Origin: a virus | Direction: 5' to 3' (one strand) | Virus record (IMG/VR): IMGVR_UViG_3300002026_000015 | Span: 1 to 64,000 of that record | DNA length: 64,000 bases | Shown: piece by piece, positions 4,257 to 60,527 of the stretch | How the letters are laid out: the number at the start of each line of letters is the position of its first letter | How positions within the stretch are numbered: position 1 is the first letter of the stretch | Made by a program: the position numbers and the translations under genes | Notes under the pieces: generated by a model | Seen by the model: only the letters and a program-made list of their open reading frames with translations | What the model was told of the DNA's origin: nothing | The model's database searches: none

Positions 4257-4268
4257 CATTAAGATGTC
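4257..4268 (-). promoter_or_regulatory. late-type promoter GACA-N6-TG
   Basis: GACA-TCTTAA-TG upstream of terL. Confidence 0.6.
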
Positions 4269-24458: not shown

Positions 24459-24776
24459 ATGGATTGGAATAGTAAAGTTGAGATTACTGTATAAACTCAG
24501 GTTGAGAAATCTATTTTTGAAATAATAATAGAAAACTTAAAACAGGTTCCAGTTAACAAAAATTATACAATGATGTACGACTACACAATAACCAATGATG
24601 ATAAGTTATTGATAGAATTGACCCCTACAATCTCTACAGAGTTTTATTCTCTAAGGTATTGTACAATATTTAAGGAATTATTGAAAAAGAAAAGATTTCG
24701 TAAAATAGATCTTCCCCCATATCCTATGCGGGCGGAATTGTTTAAATGTGAACGACTTAAATTTGAAACGAAGTAA
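24459..24776 (+). pseudogene. hypothetical gene interrupted by an in-frame TAA at codon 12
   Basis: AGGAG RBS and ATG 24459 are in frame with ORF 24570; single TAA at 24492-24494. Confidence 0.55.
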
Positions 24777-24864
24777 TTGTGGAAAAGTTATCGAAGATTC
24801 AAATATTTGCGATCGTAATGCAGATTATAGTTGGAATAATGATTGTTCAAAAGAAGGTATCATA

Positions 24865-25086
24865 ATGGAAGCTAATCTTTTCGATATTGTAGTTCTTCCG
24901 AAAATCGTTGAAAAAGCGAGATCTGTAAATCTTTCGGGAGATCCGGCACAAGATCTTAACACTGTAATTGGGATGATGGCAACATCGTTAAAGTTTATTA
25001 GAGACTATGACCTTACAAAGGAACAATCTCAAACTTTGGCAAATGTATCCTTAGCCGCTATGAAAGATATTGGTCTTGAAGTATAA
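24865..25086 (+). CDS. hypothetical protein
   Basis: GAAGG RBS before ATG 24865; terminator 25084-25115. Confidence 0.6.
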   Translation: MEANLFDIVVLPKIVEKARSVNLSGDPAQDLNTVIGMMATSLKFIRDYDLTKEQSQTLANVSLAAMKDIGLEV

Positions 25087-25115
25087 AAAGAGTGGGTTGA
25101 TTCCCACTCTTTTTA
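25084..25115 (+). terminator. intrinsic terminator
   Basis: TAAAAAGAGTGGG-ttgatt-CCCACTCTTTTTA. Confidence 0.8.
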
Positions 25116-25139: not shown

Positions 25140-25422
25140 TCTATATTAAGTGATGATCAGGATATATAAATAAGGTTTCTTCTACAGCAGCAGGTATAAA
25201 GCCTGTTGCTGGGTTGGAACTGGTTCAGGAACTAACAATTCCTGGAGAACAGTTGTATTAGAACTTAAAGGAACTCTCCAGTTCGTTAAGTTCTAATAGG
25301 ACGTCATGAGCATGACGGTTATAAAAGGCTCATCTTCTCTCCCTGACTCAAGGGATTATATGTCATAAGCATGGGCTAGACACCGCAACTATCGGATATA
25401 GTTAGAGAAGAAAGGTTTCAGG
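25140..25422 (+). ncRNA. early promoter followed by a highly structured ~260-nt leader or ncRNA (unknown family)
   Basis: TCTATATTAAGTGATGA promoter; stems 25185-25211, 25218-25254, 25256-25298 (13 perfect bp) and 25333-25411. Confidence 0.55.
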
Positions 25423-25731
25423 ATGACCTATATCAACCTGACACCGCATGCTATCGTGCTTAACGATGGTCGCTCATTTCCAGCTTCAGGAACACTTGCA
25501 CGTGTTTCGGCTAGTTATAGCACCATTGTTGACGATGTATGTACTCAAGTTTACGGCGATGTTCAGGATCTTCCTGCTCCCGTAGATGGCGTACGTTACA
25601 TTGTAAGCGCACTTGTGCTTGGAGCTCTCAATGGATCACGTTCGGATGTAGTAGCACCAGCTACTGGTCATCCTGACACTGTCAGAAATGACAAGGGTCA
25701 CATTGTATCAGTTCCATCATTTGTGAACTAG
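25423..25731 (+). CDS. NLTPH-family protein, candidate Crn4-like ring nuclease/anti-CRISPR
   Basis: INLTPH, LPAP..GVRYIVS..V, R.DVVAP and VRNDKGHI motifs; family match recalled from memory. Confidence 0.6.
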   Translation: MTYINLTPHAIVLNDGRSFPASGTLARVSASYSTIVDDVCTQVYGDVQDLPAPVDGVRYIVSALVLGALNGSRSDVVAPATGHPDTVRNDKGHIVSVPSFVN

Positions 25732-25847
25732 CAATGCATGCGGAGGCGGAAGTAACTAACGAATACTTCTAAATGGGTAGTTAACAGAATGTGTGGTCGG
25801 CAATATCCCCGCCGTAATTCCACACACCTTTCATAAAGGAAAAAGTT

Positions 25848-25879
25848 AAGAGTGAGGATTAAGCCCACTCTTTTTTTTT
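25848..25879. terminator. bidirectional terminator
   Basis: AAGAGTG(A)GG-attaa-(G)CCCACTCTT plus T tract. Confidence 0.65.
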
Positions 25880-26126
25880 ATTCTTCAGTATCGGATTTAT
25901 TAGTTTTATTCTTCTCAGAGAATACTCCACTAATATATCCAGCTCCTACAGCTGCAAGTAAACTTTGGAATGCCAATACCCAATTAGGAGTCATTCCCTC
26001 AACTATAAGGTTAGATGTCATCCATCCAATTGATGAAAAGATTACAGTAATGTATGCAATACGCTTACTTGAAACTTTCCCACCTTGAGAAAATAATTCT
26101 AAAAACCATTGTTTCATGATGTCCAA
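25878..26126 (-). CDS. small 2-TM membrane protein, holin-like
   Basis: SSKR then two hydrophobic helices and a charged C-terminus; late operon. Confidence 0.55.
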   Translation of the reverse strand: MDIMKQWFLELFSQGGKVSSKRIAYITVIFSSIGWMTSNLIVEGMTPNWVLAFQSLLAAVGAGYISGVFSEKNKTNKSDTEE

Positions 26127-26480: not shown

Positions 26481-26579
26481 TATATTAAGTTATGATAAAG
26501 ACGAATATGAGATAAGGTTTCTCATACTTCGCAAGATTTTTCTATGGTTCGAAAGTAACCAGGAATAGGATTTATTATG
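26481..26579 (+). repeat. conserved early promoter/structured leader, copy B
   Basis: about 90% identical to 4269-4365 with a compensatory base-pair change in the hairpin. Confidence 0.9.
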
Positions 26580-26966
26580 GAAGAAGTAGTAGTATTTGGA
26601 TCGACATATGAAGCTGTAAGCTCGTACGAAGGATACCTTAACAAATATTATTGCGTTAAGGTATCAGATGGAACGGTTATTCAATTCTCTTCTCAATCCG
26701 TAGATTTCTACGGTGACGAAGAAGAATCGATTGTTATAAACGGACTCCCGTACTCACGGGAGTCAAAGATTGTTAACGGGACTCAGGTCCTGCTGAACAT
26801 GGATGAACTCGATTTTGGAGTTCACCCATTAAATGGTCCGGAGTTCTTAACAAAACTTTCGGGCGAGATTGATCTGAGAACACTCAGATCAAACCCAAAG
26901 TCGGCAAAGTATGCCGACTTTGTGGAGGCGTATAAGCGCCTGATCGCAGATTTCAACATTCATTGA
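26577..26966 (+). CDS. hypothetical protein (single-gene early cassette)
   Basis: 129 aa after leader copy B; terminator 26968-27009. Confidence 0.8.
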   Translation: MEEVVVFGSTYEAVSSYEGYLNKYYCVKVSDGTVIQFSSQSVDFYGDEEESIVINGLPYSRESKIVNGTQVLLNMDELDFGVHPLNGPEFLTKLSGEIDLRTLRSNPKSAKYADFVEAYKRLIADFNIH

Positions 26967-27011: not shown

Positions 27012-29025
27012 TTACAAACTAGTCGTATCACACGCATTTCCCGCGCAAGCTGACTCTGACTGCACCGATGTGTTATCTTCAGTTTCGATAATGGAATTAA
27101 GATCGAAGTCTACAGAGCGTTCCATCAATATAGATGAAAGACGTTCATATTCTTCTTCAGTAATATCTTCATATCGGAGCTGAGGATAAGTTCCTCCGTC
27201 ATAATCGAGAAGAGAAATACCGTTATAAATGTTACGGTTTTCCCACATCCAATCAGTAATCATACCCCATTCATCAGGACGAACAGATACCGTTACAGAT
27301 ACATTGTGACAGTTAGTTCCTTCACGATGCGTTCCACGAATCCATTCCTTTCATAGGAATTGAAACACATGATTTTGTTTTAGGAGTATAGTAACTATCC
27401 TCAACAAATTCAGAACCAAGCACTTCAACGACGTGTTTATGCATAGGATTATCTTTTTCAAGATCAAATCTACGAATGAAATAATCATTGTGCCACGCAT
27501 GGATACCGGAAGAAGTTCCAAGAACAAGACTACACGTACCAGATGGTTTAACTGTACCGATACGTTTTGCAGGATTGATACCGATAAGGTTAGCAACTCG
27601 TTCATTTTCTTCAAGCGAAACTTTAGCAGCGATAGAAATATCGTAATCGAGAACTTTACCAGAACCGATGCCTGTCATAGATACGCCGAGAAGTGCGTCA
27701 TCTTCAGAGTTAATTCTCCATTTATCACGAAGATAATGGAAATCGGTATAACCAGCCTGAAGAGTTCCAAGGAATGTTGCATCTTTAACACGTTTATTAA
27801 GATCTTCCTGAGAAGTAATGTTAGACACATTAACCTCAGTAAGATTACAGAACTGACAGTCTTTAAGAGAGATCTCTGCACAAGGGTTGAAGAAGAGTTC
27901 CAAATCGTCAGTCCAGAAGATTCCTGGTTCACCAGCTTTAGAATTCTCAACCATAACCATGATTTCACGGAAACGCTCTTCAGATGTCACAGATCTAAGA
28001 AGAATTGCAGAATTGTTTGCAAGCTGACGCTGTTTTTCAAGCTTGTACCATGGGAGTTTACCGCCACTTGAGTGAAGCATATCGATATCCCACTGAGACA
28101 TTTCGATAGTTTTAATATCACCTTTGTACTCATATTCCATCATATATTCTGATGATGGACCTTCGCCAACAACATGTTTAATTTCACGAACGTCAATATC
28201 GAAATTACTTTTACAAGTAAGCATCTCTTCATCATCATGACTGAAGATGGAGATGAGAGCTGATCGACGAATACCGCCTGCAAGAACTGCATCGGAGATG
28301 TAACAAATAATGTCATGAACTTCGATAGGTTTAAGTTTAGCACCTTCCCCACGAGATTCAATAACATAATCGAAAACTTTACGGATACTGTGAATACAAT
28401 CGATAAGAGGTTCAGGACCAGGAGCGCGACCACCGGCGGTTTTGAGAAGTGATCCTTTAGGACGTATTTCTGAGAAGTCGTAATCAAGGTACGGTCGATC
28501 TTCAAAATAAGATCGTACAAGAGCTTTTATAGAATCCGCCCAACCCATGATACTATCTTGTACAATGAATTTACGGTGACGAGAAATAGGAGTTGTGATA
28601 GGCGGAAGTTGATCAACGTGATGTTTCTGAATAGAATAACCTACTCCAGAACCGCCAAGTAGAAGATACATGATTTCAGAGAATGCAACTGATGTATATA
28701 CTGCAAGAGCTGAACAGTTAAACATTCGAGATGCATTCATAAGGATAGGTTTTCCGGCAAATTGGAAACTTCTCATCGAAGGTACAGATTGTTTATCCAA
28801 TACAGATCCGCCAAATACACCATAAATCTCATCTGCAAGTTTTGGATATTTCCCAACATGCATATCAGCATTACGGTAGCAAAGCATTGGCCAGTCTTCA
28901 CGGCGTTGCAGTTTAGGAATATACTTTGCATATTTTGTAAAGATAATCATATCGGAGAGCATTTCCGATGGATTATTGTATTTAGACATCTTCTTTGACT
29001 CCATGATTCCGCTTTCGTCACTCAT
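27012..29025 (-). pseudogene. nrdJ: class II adenosylcobalamin-dependent ribonucleotide reductase, split by a frameshift/apparent deletion at about 27348
   Basis: FNCS, GGIRRSA, NPCAEI, CNLTE and TVKPSGT in 29025-27349; EWIRGTH..HNVS..WMWENR..YNG and C-terminal ACAGNAC in the +1 frame 27347-27012. Confidence 0.85.
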
Positions 29026-60413: not shown

Positions 60414-60527
60414 ATTTACCTCTTTAGTTGTCACATTAGGATGTTTCAAGAGTACTTAATATAGATTTATTAACCTCAAGACATACCTATATATTAACAT
60501 ACGAGAACTATTATGAAGGGTAAGTAA

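Follow-up and report, generated by a model that had tools for sequence, protein, structure and literature searches.

The window, the whole stretch of DNA analysed here, covers the first 64 kb of an IMG/VR virus record that is 108.6 kb long and has a CheckV completeness of 41%, which would place the full genome at roughly 260 kb. At 25423..25731 on the + strand lies a crn4-like gene that begins with ATG and encodes a protein of 102 amino acids, in which H9 and R88 are the candidate catalytic residues and T7 is conserved. The initial annotation had listed a series of motif elements in this open reading frame, and these were recovered exactly and in the order given (INLTPH at residues 4-9, LPAP at 50-53, GVRYIVS at 56-62, V65, R73-S-D75, P79, V87-R88 and G92-H-I94). 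The order of the layout thus stands, but two of the spacings, V65 to R73 and P79 to V87, each of 7 residues, are longer than had been implied. An SD-like GAAAGG is located at 25410-25415, 7 nt 5′ of the ATG. The start codon appears sound since the frame is open for only 7 codons further 5′ and homologues begin at the same point.

Layout and composition of the gene and its flanks

The gene had been described as forming a unit of its own, and this is supported by flanking terminators, a promoter-like motif and the SD-like site. An intrinsic-terminator-like hairpin (AAGAGTGGG / CCCACTCTT) followed by a T-run, read from the sequence at 25088..25114 (+), closes the upstream gene at 24748..25086. 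It is followed by the promoter-like motif CTATATTAAGTGATGA at 25141..25156 (+) and by a non-coding leader of about 265 nt (25157..25422, +), which is made up of four or five strong hairpins in succession. Downstream of the gene, a 3′ untranslated region of 116 nt (25732..25847, +) is weakly structured (z −1.92) with a GC content of 0.43, and leads into a hairpin followed by T9 at 25848..25879, which is also flagged as a − strand terminator and is common to the convergent gene at 25878..26126 (−). The two flanking terminators have near-identical stems, AAGAGTGGG/CCCACTCTT and AAGAGTG/CACTCTT, which gives the impression of a cassette enclosed by a repeated terminator.

The window holds five copies of the promoter-like motif, each on the + strand, where 0.06 would be expected. 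They share the invariant positions TxTATATTAAGTxAxGA, and each copy of this putative promoter precedes a single small gene. The promoter-like motif CTATATTAAGTNANGA heads several single-gene cassettes, at 1742, 4268, 26480 and 49403 (+), and is also found at 60454-60463 (−). At 4267, 26481 and 49402 the copies also have in common a leader of ~100 nt that includes a hairpin and an RBS region, whereas before the crn4-like gene only the motif is shared and the leader is a longer one of its own. The TATATTA core of the motif is similar to the early promoter consensus mapped by experiment for the AR9 virion RNAP, AAATATATATTAT-N6-G (PMC5312081). Early expression of the crn4-like gene, as initially proposed, is suggested by a single feature of the DNA, namely the likeness of this core to the AR9 consensus.

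The leader is predicted to fold with a minimum free energy of −87.1 kcal/mol (z −4.77), and none of 200 dinucleotide shuffles folded as well. Neither the leader nor the tail matched an Rfam family above noise, and the leader occurs only once in the 108-kb record. In 46 viral loci carrying homologues, nothing matched at the nucleotide level beyond the open reading frame, and the first hairpin of the leader had no match in IMG/VR. The idea that phage crn4 genes generally have structured RNA at their flanks was not supported by a control within the same loci: gaps of at least 150 nt were not enriched next to crn4 (9 of 82, versus 153 of 940 elsewhere; p 0.27), and those by crn4 were not more structured than the others (median z −2.2 versus −1.5, p 0.36).

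The higher GC content of the gene relative to its neighbours, pointed out in the initial annotation, was confirmed, with 0.467 in the open reading frame, 0.346 in the window and 0.29-0.35 in the adjacent small genes. Compared to 21 long phage genes, the excess resides in the first and second codon positions (GC1 0.64 versus 0.46; GC2 0.46 versus 0.32), and GC3 is close to the phage background (0.30 versus 0.27 ± 0.04). An excess over the flanks is also found in 46 of 47 homologue loci, with a mean of +0.09. The high GC content can therefore be attributed to the amino acid composition of the protein, and foreign origin or recent import as its cause was rejected. The adjoining gene for a 129-aa orphan at 26577-26966 (+), which has a copy of the promoter cassette at its head, has a GC3 of 0.43 against the same background of 0.27 ± 0.04 and, unlike the crn4-like gene, looks compositionally foreign at synonymous sites.

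The GC-rich stretch extends beyond the open reading frame (25150-25900), and together with the strongly folding leader this could indicate that the frame is open by chance inside a GC-rich structured non-coding RNA. This explanation is refuted in practice. The protein has hundreds of homologues with amino acid identities of 45-84%, whereas the corresponding DNA is 65-70% identical or has diverged past detection. The GC3 matches the codon usage of the phage with the excess in GC1 and GC2, and the fold prediction described below is very confident.

Kinship with Crn4 in sequence and fold

Pfam and NCBIfam gave nothing significant for the 102-aa protein, and two PHROGs of unknown function matched at 1e-12, both via the C-terminal part of longer profiles. 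Many homologues are extended N-terminally by 100-250 residues, or C-terminally, and PHROGs 21731 and 30542 represent such long forms. Searching PDB sequences with the single protein (phmmer) returned Crn4b (9r7b) with an E-value of 4.6e-5. At E≤1e-3, 515 homologues were found in one database, and an exhaustive search of another yielded 2,060 representative clusters (50% identity), from which 72 diverse stand-alone homologues were drawn for an alignment and profile. This profile matched Crn4b (9r7b, 3.8e-12), Crn4a (9sma, 2.7e-7) and Crn4 H15A (9qs9, 6.7e-6), and no other PDB entry at E≤1. It spans Crn4b end to end, and Crn4a was matched only in two pieces.

An AlphaFold2 model of the monomer, built on the 72-homologue alignment and without templates, reached a mean pLDDT of 98.2 and a pTM of 0.87. 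Foldseek against the PDB placed 9r7b at an E-value of 1.9e-8 (TM 0.78, 33% identity). The best 7 matches were all Crn4 chains, and the eighth, the first that is not Crn4, had an E-value of 1.3. Alignment of the model to 9r7b by VIA-align gave a Z-score of 13.2 with an rmsd of 1.6 Å over 96 of the 102 residues, and Z-scores of 12.4 and 11.4 were obtained for 9sma and 9qs9, respectively. Seven chains reached Z≥2 and all are Crn4; no chain outside the family did so. The resemblance to Crn4, which the initial annotation had pointed to, is hence borne out by sequence, fold and residues, and the comparisons at profile and structure level lead to Crn4 only. By fold and sequence this small gene is a clear relative of Crn4. 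No DUF1874 (AcrIII-1) match was found in the protein by Pfam, and no AcrIII-1 structure was among the fold matches. Seven uncharacterised viral proteins in BFVD share the fold, several of them with N-terminal extensions.

The Crn4 structure was described as a new fold unrelated to any other known, in the form of an arm-swapped homodimer (PMC12830947). T13, H15 and R112 are conserved in Crn4a, with H17 and R103 as the corresponding His and Arg in Crn4b, and the H15A and R112A substitutions each abolish cleavage by Crn4a. The His was proposed to act as general acid and the Arg to be supplied by the other subunit (PMC12830947). T7, H9 and R88 of the present protein align with T13, H15/H17 and R112/R103 of Crn4a/Crn4b (H16 and R102 by chain index in 9r7b are H17 and R103 in the published numbering). 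His9 had been put forward as the candidate catalytic residue, and the alignment agrees with this choice. Among the 72 homologues, H9 is kept in 68, T7 in 67 and R88 in 67 with Lys in another 4, while S62, which aligns with the ligand contact S91 of Crn4a, is kept in 69. Further near-invariant positions are N5, R27, R73, D75, P79, T81, G92 and V97.

The conservation of these residues also bears on the idea that the protein is mainly a sponge, which would bind cyclic oligoadenylate (cOA) and turn over little or none of it. Phages do encode small dimeric proteins of this signal-sequestering kind, for instance Acb2 and Tad1/2. A pure sponge needs neither the catalytic His nor the Arg, both of which are retained in nearly all homologues, and we consider this explanation very improbable.

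Crn4b from a Hyphomicrobiales bacterium (9r7b; Chi et al. 2025, PMC12830947) is the closer relative, with the same fold and 33% identity. Both proteins have NLTPH with the catalytic His, the VR(N/D)xxG loop with the catalytic Arg and the conserved Thr, as well as the Ser of 'VS', the R-x-D motif and the Arg of 'ARV'. Like Crn4b, the 102-aa protein is small, stands alone and is without the segment of ~10 residues that lengthens the arm of Crn4a. It is shorter than Crn4b, lacking ~9 residues in the region of the hairpin arm, which in the model is an extended hairpin of strands 27-32 and 42-48 within a span of 23 residues from R27 to L50. Crn4a from Actinomyces procaprae (9sma, 9qs9) also has the same fold and the conserved catalytic His and Arg, at 21-25% identity. 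It differs in having a longer, two-sheet hairpin arm, cleaves cA6 and is associated with Csm6-2/CorA in type III-D loci.

Two further differences set the present clade apart from the solved enzymes. Position 63, occupied in Crn4a by the adenine-stacking R92, is Ala in the 102-aa protein, and among the 72 homologues it is Ala in 34, Gly in 22 and Arg in 3, so that the Arg of 'VSR' in Crn4a and Crn4b is replaced by Ala or Gly in 56 of 72. This Arg is common to both solved enzymes and is not stated as family-defining in PMC12830947. The second difference is the P-A-T-G-H-P motif, a four-residue insert (TGHP) just before the catalytic Arg loop, with T81 kept in 67 and H83 in 50 of the 72 homologues; it is absent from Crn4a and Crn4b. 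The loss of the stacking Arg, the shorter arm and the TGHP insert suggest that the substrate range may differ from those of both Crn4a and Crn4b.

Viral distribution and the source phage

Relatives were located by a pattern-based scan on 46 IMG/VR contigs, 14 of which are at least 100 kb long and one 354 kb. The same patterns in 185,579 species-representative genomes gave at least 6 loci, those listed all being on contigs of MAGs. No Cas proteins were found among 10 large neighbours scanned at four of the listed cellular-genome loci, and the neighbours were nearly all orphans. Relatives in cultured phages, found by tblastn, are carried by Pararheinheimera phage KLER1-1 and Bacillus phages Shbh1 and Mgbh1, where they are annotated as hypothetical. 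The clade is mainly viral. Cellular Crn4 is encoded inside type III CRISPR loci or as a fusion with their components; the present gene lies in a phage among orphan genes, a setting that fits the phage-borne group named in PMC12830947 and not the cellular group.

Ten neighbours in the window had no PHROG match except for one fragment of ribonucleotide reductase (RNR), and nine recurrent neighbours in related loci had no Pfam domain, nor was any found in the fusion parts of ten longer homologues (224-350 aa). No known anti-defence gene adjoins the crn4-like gene, here or in related loci. Since the neighbours and fusion partners are without known domains, they provide no guilt-by-association evidence in either direction.

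One may speculate that the protein has a role internal to the phage, such as trimming of adenylate-rich RNA ends or control of a signalling system encoded by the phage itself, and the unusually long structured leader of the gene could be read in this way. The RNA activity of Crn4 was, however, judged too slow to be physiological (PMC12830947), and neither SMODS nor SAVED was matched in the 41%-complete record, where the SAVED control also matched nowhere. In addition, the patchy spread across unrelated phages fits an accessory gene. An internal role is accordingly regarded as very unlikely.

The record encodes a large terminase, an RNR, an SbcC-like protein and an NAD-dependent ligase. The terminase is ~30% identical to those of Goslar, the Bacillus phages BpSp and Goe21, Ralstonia phage RP12 and phiKZ-like Pseudomonas phages. 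No relative of the record at the nucleotide level was found in a search of a phage collection, and two orphans of ~600 aa had no phage match. The source is a divergent jumbo-scale phage. Neither phiKZ chimallin nor an RNAP beta subunit query was matched in the 41%-complete record, and with chimallin not found in an incomplete record, an argument from nucleus-forming jumbo phages is not established for this phage.

Two observations on other genes of the record deserve mention. Outside the window, a sub-threshold match to Rpb2 domain 6 of RNA polymerase (E 4.8e-6, 20.9 bits) at record position 82050-82841 (−) sits in an open frame of 1,512 codons with one in-frame TGA, which may be a multisubunit RNAP gene of the phage that is split or read through. 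Within the window, the RNR at 27012-29025 (−) looks split. A 567-aa open reading frame at 27322..29025 matches positions 23-579 of the 701 in phrog_367, and a second piece of 83 aa at 27012..27263 matches positions 631-696, with a gap of 58 nt between the two. This could reflect a frameshift, a split gene or a small intervening element.

Proposed role in counter-defence

The most plausible explanation of these observations, to which we assign a probability of about 0.78, is that the gene product is a minimal Crn4b-type ring nuclease that stands alone, expressed by the phage to blunt cOA-dependent immunity. A counter-defence function is most likely. By homology, the protein would form a homodimer in which the beta-hairpin arm of each subunit (approximately residues 27-48) wraps around the partner. 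The dimer is expected to close over the cyclic oligoadenylate and to cleave it independently of metal, with His9 of one subunit as the general acid and Arg88 of the other holding the scissile phosphate. The products would be linear oligoadenylates with 2′,3′-cyclic phosphate ends. Expression from the phage's own promoter would lower cA3/cA4 in the infected cell, and cOA-dependent type III CRISPR effectors, as well as cA3-dependent CBASS effectors such as NucC, would stay switched off.

Published work on the family and on type III immunity is compatible with such a role. Crn4b homologues occur in phages and plasmids, 11 of them in phages, and the phage homologues were proposed as Acrs, possibly also as anti-CBASS enzymes; Crn4a relieves type III immunity in vivo in a plasmid challenge (PMC12830947). 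It had further been argued for this locus that type III CRISPR is effective against jumbo phages, and this is in agreement with a report that signalling through cA3/cA4 protects against them (bioRxiv 10.1101/2022.06.20.496707).

The broad specificity initially ascribed to Crn4 holds for Crn4a, but not for the closer relative Crn4b, which does not cut cA6 (PMC12830947). Since Crn4a with its long arm cuts cA6 and Crn4b does not, a preference of the present protein for the small rings cA3/cA4 may reasonably be expected.

The system countered could be another one. The protein may act mainly against CBASS that signals through cA3 (NucC-type), or against another cyclic-adenylate system of the host, rather than against type III CRISPR, a reading that overlaps with the one favoured above and differs from it only in the system countered. 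CBASS is commoner than type III CRISPR in bacteria, and the shorter arm and the lost stacking Arg could favour small rings. Both Crn4a and Crn4b cleave cA3, and anti-CBASS use was noted as possible; Crn4a does not, however, cut the CBASS signal cAAG (PMC12830947), and cellular Crn4 occurs in type III loci. We therefore regard a main target outside type III CRISPR as possible, yet the less probable choice.

As a phage-borne ring nuclease of the Crn4b type, the protein would join other viral enzymes that degrade cyclic nucleotides. AcrIII-1/Crn2 (DUF1874) has the same proposed job, being a small dimeric viral enzyme that degrades cOA, uses a His as general acid and disarms type III CRISPR, but its fold and sequence are unrelated to those of the present protein and it is specific to cA4. 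The anti-CBASS phosphodiesterase Acb1 is likewise encoded by phages and breaks down cyclic nucleotide signals, cA3 among them. It has a different fold and a wider substrate range, and no similarity to the 102-aa protein was detected. No ring nuclease other than Crn4 is known to cut both cA3 and cA4 and, in the case of Crn4a, also cA6.

The Crn4 family (Unk01), together with its fold, its catalytic residues and its occurrence in phages, has already been published (PMC12830947). What is added here is the set of differences that separates the present clade from Crn4a and Crn4b, the size of the clade and its viral bias, and the compositional explanation of the high GC content, along with the finding that a suspected link between crn4 and structured flanking RNA fails a control within the same loci.

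A more speculative proposal, which we consider doubtful at this stage, is that the viral clade with the PATGHP motif constitutes a third subfamily of Crn4 and by far the main reservoir of its fold (2,060 representative clusters at 50% identity), with a remodelled pocket and possibly a different substrate range. The remodelling would consist of the lost stacking Arg, the insert with the conserved Thr81/His83 beside the catalytic Arg and the shortened arm. If this were true, the clade could possibly be specialised for small rings (cA3) and disarm type III-NucC as well as CBASS. The cellular, CRISPR-associated Crn4 would then have branched off from a viral family, as in the case of AcrIII-1/Crn2, and not be its source.

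Carrying such a gene may also come at a cost to the phage, since Crn4a triggers the type II Panoptes guard system through depletion of cA3 (PMC13577387). The protein described here is a compact and confidently modelled representative of a clade with abundant members in large uncultured phages. It is thereby a good candidate for establishing whether viral Crn4 acts as an anti-CRISPR or anti-CBASS enzyme, or trips guards such as type II Panoptes.
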